A DNA stretch of 13,237 nt, taken from IMG/VR virus record IMGVR_UViG_3300013383_000248. One strand, 5' to 3'. Source of the stretch: a virus. Shown here piece after piece: positions 1-13,009 of this stretch; the stretch's first letter is position 1; each line of letters starts with the position of its first letter. A program made the position numbers and the translations under genes. The notes beneath the pieces are model-generated. The model was given only the letters and a program-made list of their open reading frames with translations, searched no databases and had not been told where the DNA came from.

Positions 1-1892
1 GCATAGAAGAATGTAGTAGTCTTAATAGGTTCATCAAGTGATGGAGACCAAGAGGCAAACTCATAGTAATCAGAAGGTTCGCCGCCGACTTTCTTTTTAA
101 TATCTTCTTCATTGCCATTATAACTAGCATAATTACCGTAATAAACTCTAGTTTCATAAAGTAATTCACTATCATTGTAAAAATATACAGGATAACTTCT
201 CAGCTCTTCGGAGAATTCAGGCTCAACTGTTTTAGGAGCTGTAATTTTATCAAAGGTATCTTTCCAATCAGCATAAGTATAATCATACTATGCATCAGAT
301 GTCTTAGTAGGAATCTTGATAGTTTTATTAGCAACCGGATCAACGGCTGCGCCACCTTTGATAATCCACTATGTATTAACTACTTTATTATCGCCATCTA
401 CAAATTGAACTCTATAATATGTATCATAAAGGGCAACCATTGTAAGTGGTCCTTGAATATTGCTCTATAGATTACTTAATTCACGATAGATGTAATGAGT
501 ATCCTCAGTGCCTTCGTGAGTAGGTGTTTCAATTAATCCTGTTGCTATTGGATCTATAGCATTATCTCCTTGAGAAATTGCATATTTATAAAGTAAATCA
601 TTATTCCAGTTTACATAACGTAAGAAGAAGCGTGTTTTACCATTAACAATAACAATTAATTCCTTAAATGTTTCATTAAGTTCTTCAAGGAAATCATCAC
701 TAATTTCATTAATTTCAATATAACCAGTGACAACCGCGGTTTCAGTATTATTACCATTGGCATCTATACCGCCGCAAGATTTTAGTTTATTAAAAATAAT
801 CTTTAAAATATCTTCATTGGTGACAGACCAAGTAAGATTAACTAAACGCACACGATCAAGTTTAGGACTATTTAATAGAATATTTTCAATGGGAATGTTA
901 GGAGTATCATCAATCCATAAGGTATTGAGACTATCATAACTTTCCATAGAGAAATTCTAAATACCATGCTAATTACGAATTGTTAAGTTCGTAAATGTCC
1001 CAGGTAATTCTAGATTGGTTAAATGTCCGCCCATTGGGAATTGTAAACTCGTTAAAGAAGAACCTTTTGCTTTTACAGTTTCAAGGTTTACACAATTACT
1101 TAAATCAATTGCTTTAACTAGATTTATACAATTTTCAACATTTAAATAATCTAATAATCTATTATTACCAAGTTCTACACTTGTTAATTTATGATTAGTA
1201 TATCCATCTGCACTACTGCCAAGAATAACTTCTCTTAATTTAGTAGCCGAACTAAATTTAACAGTATCAGGTTTGAAATTACTTAAATCACCGAAGCTAG
1301 AAATTCTATCAGAAGAGCGAATAAAGATTTCAGTGTCAGATGCCGTATCAATTGGGCATTTTAATAAGTTAGGTGTATTGCGTTTACTACGCTGAGTGAC
1401 TGGATAAGAATCAGTAAAATCAACGCGGGGCCATAGATGTTGATAAGGAGTTACTGTGATATCTTCTGGAGAATATGCACGGAAACTTGCTGTCATCTTT
1501 TGGGCGTCGCCAGTGCGATACTTAGAATCGCGGTATTTAAATGTATTATATAACCACCATTCACGCTAAGTACGCTTATTACCTTGGCACATATCAAAGT
1601 ATTCTTCGCCATCAGTTAAATATACATCTAAGTATTTTAATTTAGCATCTTCATTCCAAAGAGCTTCAGGCCAGCATTTACTTTGATGTTCATTCATTTT
1701 TGTGTTAATAGCTTCATAAGAGAACTTACCTGCTATACGAAGTTTATCATACATAGCATAAATTTCAGATTTAAAAGCATCACGAATATTTAACCATAAT
1801 GTGCTTTGCTAGCCATTAAATACATCTTCATTATTTACTTTATCAGTATCTTCAAGGTCATAGTCGAAGACAAGAGCGCCTTCATTATTAAT
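1..1892 (-). CDS. Giant protein G, exon 2, partial: it continues beyond the window start. It holds the C-terminal part of the CotH-like domain, then a leucine-rich-repeat region, then further domains.
   Basis: The frame is the same as exon 1. It is open from 1892 down to position 1 through TAG codons at 1809, 1566, 969, 957, 465, 369 and 288. It joins track ORFs 1566..1754, 969..1496 and 465..947. There is no RBS or start near 1892. An LRR-like segment reads LTSVELGNNRLLDYLNVENCINLVKAIDLSNCVNLETVKAKGSSLTSLQF. Confidence 0.6.
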
Positions 1893-2939
1893 CGTTTAAT
1901 CCACTATTTCTAATGGAACAGACTATATCTTAACGGATTTTTTTAAATCCGCAAAACCCATTTCAAGCTATGTATCAATAATAGCTTTACTCTCCCGATC
2001 CGGAGATAGTCGTTACAGGTTTATAATTTAAATTATTTCAAATTTAGGAATTGCTTCAAATTTCCAACCATATAAGAAAGATCGTTTAGTAGGTATCCAA
2101 GTATCTCCAGCCTAATGTAAATTACTTCTTAAACATATATCTTTATTAAAATATAAATTAGGTTCTTTAGATGAAATAAATATCATTTCTTCGTTATTTG
2201 GAGATATTGCTTTTACAAAATAATGTGCTGTTTTTGCTTTATTTTTTCTAGCATTAGGACCATTATAATAGTTTTTCATAAAATCACCATGTCGTTTAGC
2301 TTGTTCTTGGCCTATAGGAGTTTTATAAAAATTATTCATCCATTCAGTATGCTATTCTATATGTGATTTATCAGCCCAATATTCTGTCATGCTCTAACTT
2401 AATTTTTGACGTCTTTCACCACTTCGTTCAGGATTGTTCCAATAAGCTTTAGATTGTTCTTGATGGCTATCTCCACCTGATGTTAGATTATATCCTTTGT
2501 CTAAATTATTAGAATCATAGAATTTTATATAATAACATTCTCGCTCATTTAATTTATTCTATAATTCTTGTTTATCATTAGTTTTTATTGTCTCTATGAT
2601 TTCCCAAATAAAATTATCTTTAGGATACTTTTCTAAAGTTTTATGAAAAACTGAATTGCCATAATGACGTTTTGTTGCAGTATAATGGCTAGAACGTCTA
2701 CGGTTTAAAGTATTAATAGTCTAACCTATATAAATTTTATTATTTTGTTTATTAGTTACTTTATATATTAATCCTATCATTTAACTTCCTCCTTTCTTAA
2801 AATTTTTTTTGTTGAAATAATTTAAATTAATTTCCCACGGTATTGCCTTCATCTTTACATGGTCAGGTTTCACCGTTAGCATATATTAAATATATACCCC
2901 GTTGATGAGACGGAAAAGGTTTAACAGGCATTATTACAT
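1893..2939 (-). mobile_element. Group I (IA-like) self-splicing intron, about 1047 nt, carrying a GIY-YIG homing endonuclease ORF in a peripheral loop
   Basis: The last exon bases GGU plus the first intron bases AU pair with an IGS-like AUGCC, giving a U-G wobble at the proposed 5' splice site after 2940. A P2-like hairpin CCGU...ACGG lies at about 2895-2912. P7 5' strand GACTAT at about 2003-2008 pairs with ATAGTC inside the conserved S-element AAGATATAGTC at about 1921-1931. A P9 hairpin CCATTA-GAAA-TAGTGG (GNRA tetraloop) at about 1901-1916 is followed by ACG, with candidate omega-G at 1893. There are further helices CTCCG-GAT-CGGAG and AGCTAT...ATAGCT. The flanking exons are in the same frame and together reconstitute one CotH-like domain. 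The intron length of 1047 nt, a multiple of 3, fits the frame continuity. Exact splice junctions are uncertain by a few nt. Confidence 0.6.
2028..2780 (-). CDS. GIY-YIG family homing endonuclease (I-TevI-like), 250 aa, encoded inside the intron
   Basis: ATG at 2778-2780 with SD AAGAAAGGAGGAAG. Translation reads MIGLIYKVTNKQNNKIYIG-Q-TINTLNRRRSSH...ELQNKLNERECYYIKFYDSNNLDKGYNLTSGGD. It matches the GIY-(10/11)-YIGQT, Arg/His and Glu/Asn GIY-YIG motifs. Five in-frame TAG codons, at 2721, 2559, 2394, 2352 and 2112. TAA at 2028-2030. It contains track ORF 2112..2339. Confidence 0.75.
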
Positions 2940-5900
2940 ACCATTAGCGGTATCAAAGTCATAAGGAAGTAAAAACCAATGAGTGCCGTCAAAGGTAGTG
3001 AAGAACATATTCTTTGCACGGCTATCAATCATTAAGAATACTTCAGTAAAGATATAATAGAAAATAAAATCATCTTTAATAAGATAATCATCAATTTCAT
3101 ATTTAAATTTATCAAGACGGTATTCTTCTGTATCATTATTATAAGTAGTTCCGCCATAAGTGACAGGAGCACTTAAGGCTTCACCGGTAGCCTAACGTCT
3201 ATCAGTAGAAACAATCCAATCAGCCACACGCTTAAATTGTGTATAATCACTATAAGGTTCATCTAAATCAGGATAACGGGCCTCGAAGTCAGCCATCCAA
3301 GCTGGAGTTACTGTACCTGTTTCGGCGTCTACGTATGTTTCTTCAAATTCACTCTTTTTAAATAACGTTCTATCAGAGGTATTATTTGAGAATTCCCAAC
3401 TTTCAAGGTGAGGATATAATTCACTATCAAAACCGAAAACATTTTCATTGCTCTTATCGTTATTCATATTATACATACCTTGGAATTTTACTTCGCCGGT
3501 TTCTGTATTTTCCCAGAAAACAACAATAGGAACGCCCTTAATGCCCGTTCTTATTTTATCATTTGTCTTTTGGGGCGGAGTTTTAAAAATATCACGAACA
3601 AGAGTATCATAATAATCTACAAGAACTGTATTATTTGCGTGTTCAGAAGAAGCATAGTCAGCTTTTAAGCATAATGTCGCGGCAAGTAAATCGCCGTCTT
3701 CAATTGGGAATCCTTTTGCTGTATCGCCATTAGAATAAGTAATACCTTTCTTAAAAGATACTTTAAAATTCTTAATAGGATAAACCGCTGAAGATGTACC
3801 TTGAACATTAAATTGACATCCAGTGGCTGTGAAATTACGTTCAGGATGTAAATTATCTACGAAATAAACAGATTTATTTTTCTTTTTATCGCCCTTATAC
3901 TATGGTAATTCTTCACATTGCATTACTAAGTAAGGAATAGACTTAGGTAATGAACCAATTGTAAGATTGCCGGATATATCATAAATGTGATTGCGCTCTT
4001 CAATTTCTAATCTTTCGCCATTAGTAGAACGGTCACAGATATAGTTATTTAACTATTCAGACATTGTAAGATTACGGTTATAGAAACGCATCTTATATAA
4101 GTCAAGTCCACAAGTATCAGAACCAATAGTAATAGGCTATGGAGTTGATTGTTTAAAATTATCATTTTCAGGATACTGTTCAACCGCACAAATAATGCCA
4201 TTTACATACATATAAATGAAACGATTTAAGGTTTGCGGCTCTACAACTACTGTAATTCTAACACGTTCATCTTCTTTAAACATCATAACAATTTCTTTGG
4301 ATTGCTCTGATTTAAAAATGATAGATTGGGATTTAATCACAAAACCGCGACCTTCATTAACACAAGATACAATGACTGAATCATAATCATTTACATTATG
4401 ACTACTTAATTCAAATTCCATTGTATAACCATTGGAGCGTTTGTCAGTTGCGAATGGATAGAATGGGATTACCATCTTATCTTTTGGTAAGAATCTTAAT
4501 ACTGTTTCACCAGCATCGCTCTCTACCCAGCCATCTGCGCCAGACCATACAAAACGTTCAAAAGAAGCATCTATATCATTATAGTTCCATTGTGCAGGAT
4601 TCTTTTCAGCATTACTACGTCCATTAGCTGTAAATTCTAATGCAAGATTGTCTTTAATGACTGATAAATTAAAAGTAGATTCGTGAATAGTCATATGGAA
4701 TTCTTTAATGGCGTCAGTGCCTGAATCACTACTTGCTGTAATACGGAAAATAATTTGTCCGGCGGGATAATCTTGGATAACCCAGTTTTGAGTAGTTTGA
4801 TTTACAATAATTTCTTTTGTAAAATAAATTGAATTATCAGGATTAATAATTTCTAATTTTACATTAGTAGTCTCAAGGAATGGATTATAAACCATATAAG
4901 GAATAGTAATGATTTCGCCTTGAGTTGATTCTGTCTACTGGAATGTAGAAAGAATATGTGTATCAACCATTTCGTCAGTCACATACATCATACCAAGAGT
5001 AAGAGTATTAGATTGAATAGACATATTATTAGTTTCCATTGTGGCATAGCAAGTAAATAAGTGGGCGCCGGCTGTCTACATAGGAATCTTATAACTATAA
5101 GCCAATTTATTAGTACTAGTTATTTCTTCGTTATATAATTCATTGCCATCCATTAAATAATGTAAAGTCTTAGTGCCTGAACCAATGATAACAAATGCAA
5201 AACTCGTATCACTAGTGTAAATATCCATTGATTTAAAATTAGTAGTTAATGATAAGTTAATAACACTAATTGAATAAGTCAATGTTTTTTGTTTGCCATC
5301 AGAATTTTCAACGACTAACTAAACATCATTGTCACCAAGAACTAAGTATTTAGTAATATCAAATGTTTGTAGCTTTTGTGCAACTGCAATAGTTGTTTTC
5401 TTTACATCATTGACAATGAGAGTGCCGATGCCAGGACCATCATTAAGACCATCTTGGTCTATAGACGAATAGCGGAATTTTAATTCTATTGTATCGCCTT
5501 CAAGTGTGGCAAAGATTCGGTCAATTGCAGATTGGAGAGTAATGTTATATCCTTCTTCAATAGTGCCGCCACCCGCTTGCCCTAATTTTTCATAGGCCTT
5601 GGTCAAAGTATTATAATTATATAGAGCCTAATCCGCGATGACCTTATACAGCACATCAGCTTCGCCGGTCTCAGGCAATTCATCAAATTTATTCACTACA
5701 AGAATATTACTCTTACCCTCAACGGCCTATTGAGTTTCATTAAGAATTTCATAAGCGGCTTTAGTGTCATTCCAGTAATAAAATTTTTGATTTTCTTTTA
5801 CTTTATATAATACATCTTCAACTTTTTCAGTAGGTAAATTGGCGATGGTATCTATAACTGCTATGTTCTCTTTACCTTCTACTATTGGAGTTTCACCAGT

Positions 5901-6536
5901 ATTTTCATTAATTGCCTAATAAGTTCTGGTCTATTGATTCCAAGTGTAAAGTAAATCAGTATCAGCTACCTTATAGAGCATAATTGGATTACCTTCATCC
6001 GGTAATTCTGCTTTAGTGCTAATTAATTTAATATTATTAATTTGAGATACTGTTTCTGCTTTTATTTTTTCATAATTATTATTTTGTGAGTTCCAGCTAT
6101 AAATTAACTAATCATCTAAGGATTTGTATAATTTATTATTTTCGCCGTTAGCTGGGAAGCCATCTTTTGTGTCAGCAACAATTATATTATCAATTTGAGG
6201 TTCTGGGTCTGGAATTTCTTGCTTTTCGTTGATAGCAATAAATTTATCATTATCCCAAAAATAGATTAATGATGTTGATTTAACTTTGTAGAAGAATGAA
6301 GCATCACCCTCTGGGGGTAATTTTTCTACTGTTTCAATACTTTTATTTTGAACAACTATATCATTTTCACTAGCAATATATTTCAATTCTTTCCAATTAG
6401 TTGTTCCATCACCAATTTTTAATTTATGAGTGTCTAGCTCATAACCGGCTTCTCCTATCGCTAACGTAGGATTAGCATCTAACCAATTGGTAGAAGTATC
6501 AGAACGAAGTAAAATTGTAGCATTCAATTTCCCCAT
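2940..6536 (-). CDS. Giant tail-fibre / structural protein G, exon 1 (about 1199 codons). It contains the anchor domain, 5 tandem YKV/LYxWN repeats, a ConA-like region and a CotH-like kinase-fold domain up to the P(Y/W)DxD motif.
   Basis: ATG at 6534-6536 with a strong SD (AAGGAGGTAAA). One minus-strand frame stays open across track ORFs 6108..6536, 5319..5606, 5076..5282, 4137..4895 and 3192..3476 and all gaps between them. It is interrupted only by 12 TAG codons, at 6108, 5931, 5916, 5727, 5628, 5319, 5076, 4935, 4137, 4053, 3900 and 3192. CotH-like motifs are present: NVQGTSSAVYPIKNFKVSFKKG (compare RGNSS..YPKKSYKIKF) and KNMFFTTFDGTHWFLLPYDFDTANG (compare the PWDxDxxFG region). The frame ends at TAA at 2934, which I interpret as lying within the intron, 5 nt after the 5' splice site. 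Confidence 0.65.
5585..6360 (-). repeat. Five tandem in-frame protein repeats of about 50 aa each in gene G, of the form ...LP.EG...(V/I)LYKV.....LY.W(N/D)....Y(E).(I/L)
   Basis: Translation shows FFYKVKSTSLIYFWDNDKF, KLYKSLDDQLIYSWNSQNNNYEKI, IMLYKVADTDLLYTWNQQTRTYQAI, DVLYKVKENQKFYYWNDTKAAYEIL and DVLYKVIADQAQYNYNTLTKAYEKL at roughly 150-165 nt spacing. One copy of the module also occurs after the anchor domain in X and in Y. Confidence 0.6.
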
Positions 6537-6570
6537 TATTTTACCTCCTTATATTTTAATCTCTAAATAC

Positions 6571-6610
6571 AATAAAAAAAAGGGTTATTCAGTTAACCTG
6601 AATAACCCTT
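6571..6610 (-). terminator. Rho-independent terminator downstream of gene W
   Basis: A perfect 13-bp stem AAGGGTTATTCAG / CTGAATAACCCTT (6580-6592 and 6598-6610) with a 5-nt loop. On the minus-strand transcript it is followed by a run of 8 U residues (plus-strand A-run 6574-6581). It starts 12 nt after the W stop codon. Confidence 0.7.
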
Positions 6611-6622
6611 TGGAATTAAAGA

Positions 6623-8599
6623 TTACATTACTGTATTGGCAGAACCACAATCAAAAATAACGTAAGCAGTTTGGTCTAAATCATCAATCTTGCCGGAAGC
6701 AGCAACTTTATGAAGCATTACTTCCGCACCCTTACTGATTGCACCATTGGTCTGCTTAACCTGAGTTAAAACACCAAATTTACCGTCAGTCTGGGTTTCA
6801 GTAGCAACTGCACCTTCACTAGTTAACTTAGTAATTGCGCTCGCAGCATCATCAGCACTCTTCTAAGCAGCAGCCGCAGCAGCAAAAGCACCATAAACAG
6901 TCTTATCATCGGCAGTATCTGCATCATCGCCCAAAACAGCAGCAGCAGCACCGGCGGCATCATAGGTACCAGCTTTAATGCTACCAGAGACAGACTTTAA
7001 TGTACCATTTTCCTGAACTACGGTAAGAGCTAGTTGACCATTACCTTCAGCAGCATCTTGAGAAACAGTACTAACAAGATTTACAACTTTATCGTTAATT
7101 TTCTTATCAACTGAGCCTGCAGTCTCAACAGTACCATTTAAAGTATCAATAGCGGCTTTATTGGCGTTAACTTTTTCTTCAAGAGCAGTTACATCAGCAG
7201 AAGCACCACTCTTAATGCTAGCTAAACGCTCCGTTAAGGTTTCTTTTTCGCCTTCTTCGCCGCCCTCTTTATCTAACTTGACTTGATCGCCAGAGATAGA
7301 GATTTTGCTACGAGTGGCAGTGACCATACCATTATTCTGGACAATAGTGGTAATGGTTTCATCAGCAGTACCTGTTTGAGCAGCAGCACTTAAAGATTTC
7401 TTAACAGCATCAGCAACGCCTTCATCACCGAACTGATCGAACTTGGTGCCATCAAAGATATACTCTAAAGTGCCAACGATGACAACATCACCAGTTTTAT
7501 AATCACTTACATCAGTAGGAAGAGCTTCTAACATACCTTTATAAGTTAAGGATTTAGAGAACTTTTCAACTACAGCATCGACATCTGCTTCTGTAGCAAT
7601 TTTATTGCTTTCAGAATTATAAGCAGTCTTAAACTTTAGATCACGTTTAGTAGCAGAAACAATACCATTAGCTTCGCTGATTTCACCTACGAAAGAAATG
7701 GTTTCACTATTGTCAGCAACACCAGCTTCATAACCAGTATAGTTTAATTTCTTAATTGCATTATCACGATCAGTAGCTTCTTGGGCAGCAGCAGCAGCAG
7801 CTTCTTCAGCTTTAGTCTGTGCAGCAGCGGCAGCTTTATTTGCACCGAAAACTGTACTAGCGCCAGCGGCATCAGTATCTTTACCAAGAACAGCAGCAGC
7901 AGCACCGGCGGCATCATAAGTGCCTTCTTTAATAGTAGCAGTGACAGATTTTAACGTACCATTTTCCTGAACGATGGTGACATCAAGGCCATCAGCATTG
8001 ACAGCATTTTCATCAGTGCGGTTAGAAATAGTAGCATTTAACTTTTTAATAGCCGCATCAATTTGACTAGCAATACTACCAGCACCGCCAGTTAATCCTT
8101 CAATTTCAGTCTCTAATGTAGCAATACGGCCAAAAGCATCAGTAACATCGATTAAAGAATCGGTAACATTCTGCCAATCTCCATCTAATTCTTTAGATTG
8201 AAGTTGATATTTACCAGGAATAACAGCATTTTCATCATCTTTAGCTTGAACGATTTTATATTGAGTATTGGTATCGTAGTCAGAATATTTTTCAATAGCT
8301 TCTTGTAAACCAGTGATTTCAGAAGCAGCATAAGAAGGCTTGTTAGCAGCTTTAGCCCAGCCATATATATCAGCAGCTAATCCACTTACAAAAGGAAGAA
8401 AACTATATTTACTAGCACCATCGCCAATTTTAAGGACTACATTAGGTAAATTCTGTAATTTACTAGTAGTGTTACCCTCTGGAATAGTAGCAATTGCCAT
8501 TTCGCCTTTCTTTAATACAGGATCAGCAGCAAGCCAATTATCATAACTATCATATTTTAATTGAATACGAGTTTGAAATACTTTATTAGTATCAGGCAT
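6623..8599 (-). CDS. Tail-fibre protein W, 658 aa. Anchor-like N-terminus (...VLKIGDGASKYSFLPF), poly-Ala-rich central region with two long internal direct repeats.
   Basis: ATG at 8597-8599 with SD AAAGGAGATAATAAATT. Track ORF 6863..8599 continues in frame through TAG at 6863-6865 for 80 more codons (KSADDAASAITKLTSEGAVATETQ...FDCGSANTVM). TAA at 6623-6625. An intrinsic terminator follows immediately. Confidence 0.8.
6866..7020 (-). repeat. Intragenic direct repeat in gene W, copy 2 (encodes LTVVQENGTLKSVSGSIKAGTYDAAGAAAAVLG...)
   Basis: About 85% nt identity with 7836..7990 over roughly 100-150 nt. The shared core is cagcagcagcagcaccggcggcatcata...ctttaatg/acgtaccattttcctgaac. Confidence 0.6.
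7836..7990 (-). repeat. Intragenic direct repeat in gene W, copy 1 (encodes VTIVQENGTLKSVTATIKEGTYDAAGAAAAVLG...)
   Basis: Paired with 6866..7020. Both copies are followed by Ala-rich tracts. Confidence 0.6.
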
Positions 8600-8627
8600 A
8601 ATTTATTATCTCCTTTTCAATCAATTA

Positions 8628-10304
8628 TTAATATGTAAAAGCTGCGGCGCCACCACAATTAAGTAGGACATCCTCAGTCTATACAAGTTTATTAACATTT
8701 AAGCTCTTAACCTCAAGAGCATTATTGGTATCAAGACCAATTTCAGCAGAGGTTTTAACAATACCAGCAACTTCACCAGTAGCAAATGGTAATTCAACTA
8801 CTTTATTAGTAATTGCTAAGTTTTCAGTCTAACCGGCTAACTTAATAGCTTCAATTATATTGACTTGAGCACCTTCGGCAATACCATCTAATTTGGTTTC
8901 GTCAGCAGCACTTAATAAGCCAGGAGCTGTATCACGCTTACCAGTAATCCAATCAGCAAGGCCAGTTACTTTTTCAGCAGCAACATTAGCTGAAATTTCT
9001 ACTGAGCCGTCCTCATTGATAACTAAGTTATCTAATTTAGCCTTATTGGTTGGGCTTAAGAGCGTCCAAGCTACTTGCTCGCCATTGACTTCGCTGGTAA
9101 CTTTATCAACTTTACCATCAACTTTAGTAGTTAATGCAGCAATATCATTAGTATTTTTAGTAACTTTACCAGTTAATTCAGTAACTGTAGAAGCATCAGC
9201 TTTTCCAGCAACAGTTTGAGTAAGAGTAGCTAAATCTGCTGTATGACCTTCAACAGTTGTAGTAAGAGCTGTTAAATCAGCTTGATTGGCTTTACCATTG
9301 ACAGCTTCAGTAAGAGCTGTAATATCTCCAGTATTTTTATCAACCTTGCCAGAGAGAGTTTCAACAACAGTAGCATCAGCTTTCTTACCAATTGCTGTAG
9401 TATTAGCAGCAATCTTAGTAGCAAGATCATCAGTTACTGTAGTTTTAGCATAACTCTCAAGAGTAGTATTAACATCAGCAGTTTTAGCATAATCAGTTAA
9501 ATCAACAGATGTATCACCTATTAATTCAATAGTATAGCTATCTTCTGCACCAAAGCGCATATACTCTTTATAGTTGTCTTTACCATCTTTAGAAGAAACC
9601 TTCTGCATATAAATAACATTATCAGATGCTGTAGATGGGTCAGCGATAAATGCAGCAAGTTCTTGCTCAGTGACAATCTGACGAGTTAAATGGCTAGCTC
9701 CGGCGACTGCGGCGTCAATAGCTAAATCAGCCTCATCCTTAGTATAAACATCTGCGGAATTTGCCTTTTTAGCAACTTCATCTGTTACAGTAGTAATTTT
9801 ACCATCAATATCATCTTTGGTATATACATCTTCGCTGTTGGCTTTTTTAGCAACTTCAGTTTGAAGATTTCCAACATTGGCTTCAAGAGTGGCAACCTTA
9901 GTGCTAAGCCCTTCAACAGTAGTAGTGTCAGGCTTTACCCAAGATAGCTTACCATCAGTGCCAACCGTTAATTGCGCACCAGCAGCTGCATCAGCAAATC
10001 CATAAAGACTTAATTTGCCATCAGCATCTTTAGTGAAAACATTTTCATTAATGACAATTTCTTCGCCAACCCCAGAAAGAGTTTTATCTGGCTGAATCTG
10101 ATAAATTTTTGCCTTACCATTTTCAACTACGACTACTGGATTACCATAGTAATATGCCGTATTAGTACTACCAGCAGGTTCGGCAGTAGCAGCAGCAGCA
10201 ACTGCGGCATCGTAGCTTTCAAAATAACTCTTAGGGTCAAGAGGGAACGCCGTTTGTCTATTAAGGCCAACAGCAAAATCAAGAACACCAAAATTCATAG
10301 ACAT
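8628..10304 (-). CDS. Fibre protein Z, 558 aa, with periodic Thr/Leu/Ala/Lys repeats typical of phage fibre shafts. Its N-terminus differs from the A/X/Y/W/G family.
   Basis: ATG at 10302-10304 with SD AGGAGGGGAAATAATT. Track ORF 8829..10304 continues through TAG codons at 8829 and 8679 to TAA at 8628-8630. The C-terminus reads ...NCGGAAAFTY. Confidence 0.75.
9075..9410 (-). repeat. Periodic fibre-shaft repeats in gene Z, about 11-residue units rich in T/L/A/K/V (...ITALTEAVNGKANQADLTALTTTVEGHTADLATLTQTVAGKADASTVTELTGKVTKNTNDIAALTTKVDGKVDK...)
   Basis: Seen in translation. It appears at nucleotide level as recurring ttaccag / ttagc(a/t)gcaat motifs. A second short pair EVAKKANS-DVYTKD lies at about 9763-9783 and 9841-9861. 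Confidence 0.5.
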
Positions 10305-10322
10305 AATTATTTCCCCTCCTTA

Positions 10323-11567
10323 TTAAATTTTTACAATATAACTATTTGCAGCTTCTATAGGAGCAGCAAATTCAGTTGTAAAGACTTTATAACTAATGCC
10401 AGCATCATTTTCAGCGCCAGCTACAGTAATAGTTTCTTTCCTAAATGCAGAAACAATTTCAGCATTTAAGCCATTGACATCTTTTACGGAAGTAATATCA
10501 CGTAAAGTAGCAGGATAAGCAAATACTACTCTGATTGCACCGACAGGAAGAGCAATAGTAACAGAATCGCCAGCTTTTAATGCCTTACCTGTTTTATTAA
10601 GAGCACGAATTGTAGGACTATCAAGACTATCTTTATTAGCAGTAGTGCCATAGAAAGTATTACGATAGCAGCTAATTGTGCCACTTGTCTTACTTACCTT
10701 ACCAGCCTTAATTTGACCGGCGGCATAAGCATTACCTTTATTAGTGACAGGAACTGCTGCGTCGTCATAACTGGCTTCAGCATTAATTGTATAACTATCG
10801 CTATCAGCAAGGACAATAGCTGTAAAGGTATCCTTAGCAGTTGTTTTATTCTGAACTGAAGTATTACCTTTTCTTAAATTTACATTCCAACTCTTGGCGG
10901 TTAAACCAGTAGCAGGGCCATAAGAATAAGAACCAGCACTCATTTTTGCATCATAACTTGGAGTGACAGATGTACCAACTTCAAAACTACCTGTAGTAAC
11001 TTGAGTAAAAGAAACTGCGGGTTGAGTAACAGTAGGATTTTGTTCCTTAACAAAAATCTATTCCCAAGTATCAGTTAAATTCTTGCCAGTAGAAGGAATA
11101 TGAGCAGAGCCATTTTCAAGGGTAATATAACCAATTTCCTTAGTAGTGAATAAGTCCTTATCAAAGTAAACATTATTCGCATTGTAATTGCCATTCATAG
11201 CTTGCCATTTGGAATCATTGTAAACATATGCGGTATAGGTTATTGCTTCACCGATTGCGGATTTAACAATAGCCATATCGCCTTCAAATAGAGCATTTTC
11301 ACCGACTACACGAGTGATCGCCGCGATATCATCTTCACCTTCAGCTAAGTCTGCTTGATAGACTTGAGCTTGATGAACATCAGATTCGCCGCCAAAATAA
11401 TCAAGTTGTGCCCAAGTTTTTTGGCCGTCGCCTAATTTCATTTTGGTTTCACCGGCGTCAGTAAATTCGACACCCATTTCGCCTTTCATAAGGACTACAT
11501 CAGAATTAGCTTCCCAATTAGCTGTTGAGTCATTACGTAAAGCAATACGAGTTTTAATCTAAGCCAT
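10323..11567 (-). CDS. Tail-fibre paralog Y, 414 aa. Anchor domain plus a distinct C-terminal, putatively receptor-binding, domain.
   Basis: ATG at 11565-11567 with SD GGAGGTAACGCAT. It overlaps the end of gene X by 14 nt in a different frame. N-terminus reads MA-Q-IKTRIALRNDSTANWEANSDVVLMKGEMGVEFTDAGETKMKLGDGQKTWAQLDY. In-frame TAG codons at 11559 and 11058 join track ORFs 11058..11489 and 10323..10943. TAA at 10323-10325. Confidence 0.7.
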
Positions 11568-11928
11568 ATGCGTTACCTCCATTTATAATATCTATATCTT
11601 CAATAGGAATACCTCCGCCACCGCTACCAGCCATAAGAGACTCATAGCCATTTGTTTCAGTATTCCATTGGTATAGTTTCGCAGTAGAAGAAACTTTATA
11701 AATAACATTTGCCTTACCTATACTTGGTAATTCAGCAAATACTCTAGCATTAACAACATTCTCGTTGTTCTAGTCTTGGTACGGTAAATCATTCCAAGCG
11801 GTTTTACCATCGCCAATTTTTAAACGCAAGGTATCAATTTCAAAACCAGGTTCACCATCTAAAAGTAGGAGGTTTTTGGTTCGCCAAGTTGTTGATTTAC
11901 CACGTTTAAATTTAATTATATCAGCCAT
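11554..11928 (-). CDS. Short tail-fibre paralog X, 124 aa. It consists of the anchor domain and one YKV/LYQWN repeat, then a GSGGGG tail.
   Basis: ATG at 11926-11928 with SD AAGGAGGAAAAATAAT embedded in the 3' end of gene A. Protein begins MADIIKFKRGKSTTWRTKNLLLLDGEPGFEIDTLRLKIGDGKTAWNDLPYQD. One in-frame TAG at 11770-11772. TAA at 11554-11556. It is absent from the ORF track because the TAG splits it into pieces under 60 aa. Confidence 0.6.
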
Positions 11929-11929
11929 A

Positions 11930-13009
11930 TTATTTTTCCTCCTTCTTTACTACATAGAAGCCATTTTCTAAGACCTATGTGTATCCAGAAGCAAGATAAG
12001 CCGGATTTAACATACGATTAAAGCGTCCGCCGCTAATTTCAATATGCGGTTCACCTTCAATCTTAAAATTACTATCCTATTGTGCGGTAATAAATGTGCC
12101 GCCACTAATATAAGTATTTTGGACATTTAAATCTTCATTTAGTTTACGAATATATAAATTATATTCGCCTTGATTTTGTTTACTATTTTCAAAATAACCA
12201 TCAGTAATAGTCATTGATTTACCAGTGGCAAGAATAATATTGTAGAATGTGCCGCCATTAATATTTAAAACAGCATTGTCATCATTCTTTACGGCATATA
12301 AACCACCTGCAAATGTACCATCATTAATAGTTAATTCAGGCGATTCGGCATTTTGACCTTGGACATAACCATTTGTAGCATCACCGGCTTTATAATTATA
12401 ATAACCATTTTCAATCATGCTAGAAAATTCGCCGCCACTCATAAATATACCGCCATTAATTGTCATAGTGCCATGATTAACTATAGTGTAAAATCCATTA
12501 CCAGATACATCTATTGTGCGCTACAACTTACCATTATTAATAATCGTATTACCATTATTAAAAACTGCAGGCTTACCATTTTTATTACATTCAATAGTAC
12601 CTTGACCTTTAATAGTTAAATCGCCGCCTACTTTGATGTCTATTGGAGTTGTTTCATTATTGATAATATTATTACCATTTAATTCAACAGTTAATTTTTT
12701 ATCAATAGAAACACTATTATCAAAGTCTTTATTAAGACGAATGGTGCTTCCTGCTGGAGCCTTCATAAATGCTACGTCAATAGATTGATAAGGCACACCA
12801 TCTACGACCGCGGGATTGCTAGTGTAGTCTTGGACGTTAACGACTTTAGTGCCACCGATATAAGGTAGTTCGTTCCAAGCTGTTGAACCATCACCAACTT
12901 TAATCTAATGAGTATTAAGTTCTACGCCAATTTCACCAGCTGCAAGAATAATATTTTTTTTAGACCAACTAGATGATTTGCCGCGTCTTAATTGAATAGT
13001 TTCAGCCAT
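11930..13009 (-). CDS. Tail fibre / tailspike paralog A, 359 aa. It has the HylP-like N-terminal anchor domain followed by a beta-helix-like C-terminal region with repeated NGGTF / INNG motifs.
   Basis: ATG at 13007-13009 with SD GAAAGGAGAACACAAG upstream. N-terminus reads MAETIQLRRGKSSSWSKKNIILAAGEIGVELNTH-Q-IKVGDGSTAWNELPY. The same frame stays open through TAG codons at 12905, 12521, 12077 and 11975, joining track ORFs 12521..12796 and 12077..12466. It ends with TAA at 11930-11932. Confidence 0.75.

Follow-up and report, generated by a model that had tools for sequence, protein, structure and literature searches.

Evidence for a mobile IA-type group I intron with a GIY-YIG endonuclease gene in a long fibre-like gene of a TAG-recoded phage

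The viral record IMGVR_UViG_3300013383_000248 of IMG/VR (13,237 nucleotides, here analysed over its full length and called the window) contains a very long gene interrupted by a spacer of 1,047 nt. With high confidence, this spacer (2939..1893 on the minus strand) can be called a mobile IA-type group I intron. It is inserted in a single long late gene of a large gut phage in which TAG stands for glutamine. The identification rests on covariation of the predicted helices, on the boundaries, on the protein motif that excision restores and on a match of 39 bits to the Rfam family RF00028. The long open reading frames (ORFs) of the window all lie on the minus strand, as do all window features described below, and they contain in-frame TAG codons, while TAA and TGA act as stops. 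With TAG read through, frame 2 falls into three pieces, 6536..2940, 2780..2028 and 1892 onward, and in the spacer the frame is closed by TAA codons at 2936-2934, 2030-2028, 2015-2013 and 1898-1896. An earlier reading of the letters of the window (the original prediction) had proposed two same-frame blocks about 1 kb apart with these TAA codons between them, and this is confirmed to the base.

Exon 1 (2940..6536) starts with an ATG at 6536 and has 1,199 codons, 12 of them TAG. It encodes an Mtd_N domain at the N-terminus and ends inside a CotH-like domain at ...PYDFDTANG, that is, after the P(Y/W)DxDxxxG motif at which the upstream block had been predicted to end. Exon 2 (3..1892) begins with INNEG, contains seven in-frame TAG codons and runs for more than 630 codons off the end of the window, encoding the remainder of the CotH-like domain and repeats that resemble leucine-rich repeats (LRRs). 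Excision of the spacer joins PYDFDTANG to INNEG in frame, and the uninterrupted homologues have PYDxDTAxG-INNEG at this place.

To evaluate the join, homologues were searched with 565 residues around the conceptual junction, GATACCGCTAATGGT/ATTAATAATGAAGGC, and the best 120 were examined. The junction is crossed without a break in 59 of them, and another 53 stop within about one residue of it. The homologue P0001 is 69% identical over 100% of the query. The residues Y, D, D, G, N and G of the junction block are invariant across the family, and the PHROG profiles 24896 and 9391 align across the junction. The truncated database proteins often end in ...DTAIGM*, which corresponds to GGN|ATG TAA as in the window; the same insertion is therefore common in relatives. 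The comparative data support exactly this join, which is the junction originally proposed, and the downstream block is still inside the domain, as was claimed, its motif continuing with INNEG as in the 59 homologues.

The public gene callers annotate three genes here, and the relatives have called genes of 1,200, 250 and 821 residues on 24 contigs, the longest of 193 kb, from which a spliced product of about 2,066 residues follows. Since free-standing GIY-YIG genes are common in phages, these annotations could be taken at face value, i.e. as two separate genes with a free-standing GIY-YIG gene between them, without splicing, the two halves working apart or associating after translation. We regard this as extremely unlikely. 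Exon 2 has no ribosome-binding site (RBS) and its first start codon comes only after 47 codons, as the original prediction had noticed in part. The break interrupts an invariant motif within a single folded domain, the flanks of the endonuclease ORF form a covarying ribozyme core, and in L001, the closest relative (a 191-kb contig with an exon 2 that is 92% identical), the same structured RNA is present at the identical site as an ORF-less version of 241 nt.

The group I intron reading is carried by the covariation analysis. The alignment (A2) contains 16 distinct copies of the intron family with the ORF loop trimmed, and the structure model consists of 13 helices: P1, P3, two extra hairpins named H1 and H2, P4, P5, P6, P6a, P7, P7.1, P7.2, P8 and P9. 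In the model 96.8% of the cells are paired, compared with 34-44% when the partners are slid by one to three columns. Changes on both sides are found in 32 out of 65 pairs, and the observed pairing or covariation was reached by none of 500 shuffles. P7.1 and P7.2 are each 100% paired, with both sides changed in three of four and four of six pairs, and the motif AAGAUAUAGUC is invariant across the aligned copies. The conserved catalytic core of group I introns is therefore present, with its P3-P8 and P4-P6 domains, the P3/P7 pseudoknot and the J8/7-P7 consensus. The minimum free energy fold of the natural ORF-less intron of L001 gives the same helices independently (z-score -2.7).

In the order of transcription, P1 (2927..2942) is formed by the exon GGU (2942..2940) and the intron AU, which pair with AUGCC (2931..2927) and place the U2940·G pair at the 5' splice site. 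The 5' strand of P3, AAACCU (2917..2922), begins 4 nt past P1 and pairs with GGGUUU (1959..1954); P3 is 100% paired, and one of its pairs is CG in 13 copies and UA in three. H1 (2899..2913, CCGU-CUCAUCA-ACGG) follows, then H2 (2879..2897), which is variable in sequence with both-side changes in five out of seven pairs. P4 (ACGGU/ACCGU) encloses P5 and P5a (2837..2876), as supported by covariation and the fold of L001. The 5' strands of P6 and P6a (2812..2835) form a duplex with their 3' strands (2018..2041, read 2041..2018), and between the two lies the loop with the ORF.

The 3' half, 1966..2017, starts with J6/7 (2017..2012), the 5' strand of P7 (GACUAU, 2011..2006), P7.1 (2005..1992) and P7.2 (1986..1966), the loop of the latter being UAUUGAUAC with UGAU at 1977..1974. 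The 3' strand of P3 (GGGUUU, 1954..1959), identified by covariation, is followed at 1921..1952 by P8 (1952..1933), J8/7 (UAAGAU, 1932..1927) and the 3' strand of P7 (AUAGUC, 1926..1921), on which the RF00028 alignment and covariation agree. GACTAT (2011..2006) thus pairs with ATAGTC (1926..1921) within AAGATATAGTC. The last element (1893..1917) is the P9 hairpin with its GAAA loop, 1917..1900, and the tail UUAAACG, which ends with G at 1893. The U-G pair of P1, the GACTAT/ATAGTC pairing of P7 and a GNRA-capped P9 were all part of the original prediction, and they are confirmed. Two extensions were tried and rejected. Lengthening P3 by 4 bp (UUUC/GAAA, bulged) involves strands that are both invariant and thus uninformative, and lengthening P1 on the exon side through a bulged U (AAUGGU/GCC-U-GUU) is unsupported in L001.

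The splice sites follow the rules of group I introns at both ends. The last exon base, T2940, is opposite G2929 of the GCC, and this U·G pair is found in all 16 family copies. The last intron base is G1893, and a terminal G is present in all four sequence variants at this site. In the loop of P1, UAAU (2933..2930) pairs with the exon 2 sequence AUUA to form P10. The length of this helix is 4-7 bp, and its intron side covaries with that of exon 2 (window AUUA/UAAU, L001 AUAAAU/AUUUAU, L012 AUUAAUA/UAUUAAU). Both ends are rich in A and T, and a probable second intron family of relatives uses a site 2 nt downstream, so one could imagine true sites a few bases away from 2940|2939 and 1893|1892. 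The chance of this is close to nil in our estimate, as only the proposed sites combine a U paired to G, a terminal G, an in-frame join and an exact G-I-N-N-E-G, and as the same rule holds in the four sequence variants.

The second family is a different structured insertion in the fibre gene of more distant relatives (L046 6846..7131, L048 3734..3998, L047 6830..7668), located 2 nt downstream of the site used in the window. Splicing at GGA AU|...G|U AAC AAY GAR GG would restore G-I-N-N-E-G. Two of the copies are ORF-less, and L047 contains a 175-residue NUMOD4/I-HmuI-like endonuclease. Over the three copies there are 78 consensus pairs, 22 of them compensatory, with a P1 that ends in U·G and a P7-like GACUG/CAGUC pairing; RF00028 does not match the insertion, even in a scan of 361 nt. 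It is probably a second intron family aimed at the same conserved motif.

Three kinds of alleles are found at the site occupied in the window. The intron with its endonuclease gene is present in the window, L003, L004, L012 and L038-L045, and in L003, L004 and L012 the ORF is a GIY-YIG protein of 250 or 251 residues. The ORF-less form is that of L001. Intron-less alleles, with an uninterrupted domain, are found in L005-L007 from IMG/VR and in 41 GenBank phage records. The occurrence of intron with ORF, intron without ORF and no intron at one site is the classic homing pattern. Together, the covariation and the intron-less alleles settle the identity of the intron in place of the Rfam threshold.

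The family is not restricted to this gene. Its 5' signature was found on 30 viral contigs and its 3'-core pattern on at least 119. In other phage contigs the same intron family, always after ...TGGT, is located in NrdD, at three sites, and in the gene of the type II topoisomerase A-subunit. The further insertion sites are B (L009, L011, L024, L025, L026, L031, L036), C (L010, L019, L035), D (L008, L021) and E (L029). Both ORF-bearing and ORF-less forms occur; at site D, for example, L008 and L021 represent one form each. In L024 (3396..4857) a single NrdD gene contains three group I introns in 1.5 kb: one of the family of the window (34 bits), one of 31 bits and one of another family with 68.9 bits, above the Rfam threshold.

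The gene inside the intron (2028..2780) encodes a GIY-YIG homing endonuclease of 250 residues with five in-frame TAG codons, preceded by its own RBS, AAGGAGG, at 2788..2794. It matches the Pfam family PF01541 with 30.5 bits (cut-off 22.6), as well as PHROG homing-endonuclease families, best PHROG 314 "homing endonuclease" at 6e-25. Among PDB entries the catalytic domain of I-TevI (1MK0) comes out best, a weak match (E=0.4) in which IY..N..NK.Y.G, ER and GYN are aligned. The claim of a GIY-YIG gene with its own RBS (AAGGAGG, 2794..2788) in the spacer is therefore correct. An exact match of the protein, P0121, is present on 24 contigs. In the window the P6a stem has 18 bp (2829..2812 with 2041..2024, -16.8 kcal/mol) and closes the ORF loop, and a long P6a stem does so in every ORF-bearing copy. 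The TAA stop of the gene (2030..2028) lies within the 3' strand of this stem. The ORF is thus located in the terminal loop of P6a. The original prediction had it looped out between P4-P6 and P7; the looping out holds, and the place is now refined to the end of the long P6a stem.

In total 24 in-frame TAG codons are found over exon 1, the endonuclease gene and exon 2. Of the four TAG positions that the aligned segment contains, three coincide with columns with Q in 11 of 16 homologues, compared with 43% Q in ordinary Q columns, and in the database the endonuclease is translated with Q for its TAG codons. These codon comparisons show that the phage reads TAG as glutamine, in agreement with the earlier claim of a stop-codon-recoded phage. 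With the standard code the endonuclease would end after 19 residues, at YIG-TAG, so its synthesis requires suppression of TAG. This first TAG is located within the catalytic YIG-Q motif and is found at the same position in the orthologue of L003 (9105..9857, 57% identity class), which means that conservation of the recoded codon extends to the mobile element itself.

Several observations weigh against the intron reading or parts of it. RF00028 has no match in the window at its gathering score of 50 bits. In a 1.4-kb scan of 1700..3100 there is a sub-threshold match of 39.0 bits (E=4.3e-8, match region 1900..2084), and this is lost when the whole 13-kb window is scanned at E<=0.1. The whole intron family scores 31-39 bits, including ORF-less relatives with 32.6 and 34.2. 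The exon contributes just 3 bp to P1, there is no canonical P2, and H1 and H2 are unusually placed between P3 and J3/4. A tRNA scan of the 13-kb window found none, so no suppressor tRNA is located there, and Pfam detects no NUMOD, helix-turn-helix or other DNA-binding module in the predicted endonuclease. Finally, catalysis and splicing are predicted from what group I introns studied elsewhere do.

The Rfam shortfall can be traced to the ORF insertion and the atypical P1-P4 region. The RF00028 alignment is right for the 5' strand of P7 (GACUA), the 3' strand of P3, P8, AAGAUAUAGUC and the GAAA-capped P9, but the 5' portion of the model is misplaced onto the last part of the ORF. As the match depends on the length that is scanned, routine annotation will miss the intron. 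For the RF00028 search that the original prediction had suggested the outcome is mixed, with a significant E-value in the narrow scan and a score under the gathering cut-off, so half of what had been named as speaking against it was observed.

The low score, the short exon part of P1 and the indirect knowledge of splicing would also fit a decayed, splicing-dead relic, with the fibre gene being a pseudogene or giving only a truncated N-terminal product. However, all core helices are intact in the copy of the window, and the changes in the family are compensatory and not disruptive. Both exons are long and open (1,199 and more than 630 codons) and have conserved catalytic-type residues. Further, 24 contigs from different samples have the identical arrangement, which argues for a working gene. 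We consider a relic very unlikely.

One contact beyond the secondary structure is supported by the alignments. In 63 out of 67 unique copies in which both loops could be parsed, the last four bases of the H1 loop are the complement of P7.2 loop bases 4-7, compared with at most 49 out of 67 after shuffling of the partners. Eight complementary combinations occur, including AUCA/UGAU, ACCA/UGGU, GUCA/UGAC, GCAA/UUGC, AUUA/UAAU and ACUA/UAGU. In A2 the H1/H2 and P7.2 regions are columns 38-86 and 196-216, corresponding to 2913..2879 and 1986..1966 of the window, where AUCA (2906..2903) faces the UGAU of the P7.2 loop; the contact was also tested on 16 sequences. The pattern supports a tertiary loop-loop contact between H1 and P7.2, as predicted from these sequences, and this covarying contact is a testable structural feature. 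In the limited literature that could be searched we found nothing relevant on "P3.1" or on kissing contacts of P7.2 in group I introns, which is no proof that they are undescribed.

The introns of phage T4 are the obvious comparison. The td and nrdB introns (group IA2, with I-TevI and I-TevII) and the nrdD/sunY intron have P7.1 and P7.2 and an early in-frame stop, and in td the endonuclease ORF, with its own RBS, is looped out from P6a. Like td and nrdB, the intron of the window is of the self-splicing type and lies in a phage protein gene, with P7.1/P7.2, a GIY-YIG ORF in P6a with its own RBS, an in-frame stop soon past the 5' splice site, a homing lifestyle and I-TevI as the best PDB match. 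As with nrdD/sunY, its family is also found in NrdD. Of the IA2 layout, P7.1/P7.2 between P7 and the 3' strand of P3 are present, and P2 and a J3/4 directly after P3 are absent. In contrast to T4, the host gene is structural and fibre-like and not one of nucleotide metabolism. Further differences are the lack of P2, the two extra hairpins between P3 and J3/4, the loop-loop contact to L7.2, an ORF that needs TAG to be read as glutamine, and the absence from it of a NUMOD or helix-turn-helix in Pfam searches.

A crystal structure of the orf142 intron of Staphylococcus phage Twort was reportedly determined by Golden et al. in 2005. We take the 3' half of the Twort orf142 IA2 introns to have the same order and a very similar sequence, namely AACGACUAU (P7), P7.1, P7.2, GAAAUGGG (3' strand of P3), P8, GAUAUAGUC (3' strand of P7) and a GAAA-capped P9, a resemblance that is used here as a lead and not as a test. 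Unlike the intron of the window, Twort has a P2, placed between P1 and P3, and no element separates its P3 from J3/4. In Twort the reported role of P7.2 is a minor-groove contact to P7 and not a kissing loop (bioRxiv 10.1101/2021.08.11.455951).

It is possible, short of probable, that the intron represents an abundant and unrecognised IA-type variant of large gut and rumen phages. Such a variant would be defined by the missing P2, the two hairpins between P3 and J3/4 and the 4-bp kiss of H1 and P7.2; it would fall below the Rfam threshold, so that its host genes are annotated as split, and in recoded phages its endonuclease would be gated by the TAG switch.

If the intron works as characterised group I introns do, the pre-mRNA would fold into the P1-P9 ribozyme. 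An external guanosine would attack after U2940, which is held in the U·G pair of P1, and P10 would position exon 2. The freed end of exon 1 would then attack after the terminal G1893, giving the ligated exons ...GATACCGCTAATGGT-ATTAATAATGAAGGC... and a single protein of about 2,066 residues, in which leucine-rich repeats follow a complete CotH-kinase-like domain. The TAA two codons into the intron would halt ribosomes on unspliced RNA and in this way protect the ribozyme. Given its five in-frame TAG codons, the endonuclease gene should be translated only while TAG specifies Gln, presumably at a late stage of infection. During co-infection the endonuclease would cut the intron-less allele, its likely target being near ...GGN|ATH AAY AAY GAR GG, and repair from the intron-bearing copy would spread the intron (homing). 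Both the timing of expression and the cleavage specificity are deduced here, the role of the endonuclease in homing following a review of GIY-YIG homing (PMC3984707).

The element is a familiar kind of mobile intron, and introns in recoded phages, also in structural genes, are already published; the rarity that the original prediction attached to both situations was overstated. According to Yutin et al. (2021, PMC7886860), the crAss-like Delta and Zeta phages have gut genomes of 145-192 kb with TAG or TGA reassigned in late genes. Up to 14 group I introns per genome are described there, including introns in the major capsid protein gene, and intron ORFs contain reassigned stops. Those introns were found via endonuclease domains, and neither RNA structures nor splice junctions were analysed. 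The contigs of this study resemble the phages so described in being 150-193 kb long, TAG-recoded and rich in introns. The CotH-like fibre gene, in contrast, is not among the host genes named in the passages that were searched. The recoding and the density of introns are circumstantial evidence for membership in the crAss-like Zeta or "Sapphire" group; a megablast of the window against GenBank phages gave no match. For the TGA-recoded "Agate" phages, an intron endonuclease with in-frame reassigned stops has been reported, with a proposed delay until the late code switch (Borges et al., bioRxiv 10.1101/2021.08.26.457843). Unlike there, the codon here is TAG (Gln) and not TGA (Trp), and the host is a recoded late gene and not an early gene.

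The window thus adds another natural case of an endonuclease that would be translatable only after the switch of TAG to Gln, in keeping with a published proposal that late functions are timed by recoding. Mobile introns of these phages reach host-recognition genes as well as genes of DNA metabolism. On every contig examined the public calls split the fibre protein of about 2,066 residues into three "genes", and a family-specific model would repair many split genes in large recoded phages (NrdD, topoisomerase and the fibre gene).

The CotH-like domain deserves a more careful description. The Pfam family CotH (PF08757) matches neither the spliced protein of the window nor the 565-residue domain segment, even at E<=10, so the check proposed for the spliced protein failed. 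A profile of the domain against PDB sequences found no CotH and only a weak LRR match. The family PF08757 does match 12 out of 17 homologues that are 36-69% identical to the protein of the window, with a best E-value of 1.7e-13. The fold was assessed by proxy, using the AlphaFold model of the 69% identical P0001 and not of the window protein itself. This model has a mean predicted local distance difference test (pLDDT) score of 85.5, and its best PDB matches are 5JD9 and 5JDA, the CotH kinase of Bacillus cereus (E=4e-9, probability 1.00, target template modelling (TM) score 0.73). The next structural matches are LRR proteins, for the C-terminal part. The homologues and the 5JD9 match of the P0001 model support a CotH-like domain in the window. 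In the family alignment DxRxKN is invariant, and YDxD follows about 22 residues later. The two resemble the catalytic loop and the metal-binding Asp of kinases, which would place the intron four codons past the latter. The intron would accordingly sit in the most conserved, probably catalytic, motif of the CotH-kinase-like domain.

The original prediction spoke of a giant tail-fibre gene. The gene is very large, with about 2,066 codons, and its N-terminus matches Mtd_N (PF18454, 1.7e-10). The tail-fibre PHROGs match only roughly the first 50-100 residues, and the motif of this region is shared by five of six genes; we therefore infer "tail-fibre-like" from the Mtd_N domain and the gene neighbourhood only. 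A promoter scan of the region gave nothing above chance, and the single reported "terminator" is the hairpin H1.

The Mtd_N-like motif (...GDG.T.W..L.Y) is found at the start of five out of six consecutive genes in 13009..2940, with starts near 13009, 11928, 11582, 8599 and 6536. The genes may thus form an array of paralogues that encode fibre or receptor-binding proteins with a common attachment domain. Downstream of the fibre block, at about 17.4-20.4 kb in the locus coordinates of L038-L045, there is an ALK_LTK_GRD (glycine-rich) gene, with called lengths from 571 to 1,026 residues among otherwise collinear contigs, and this gene may be hypervariable or contain repeats.

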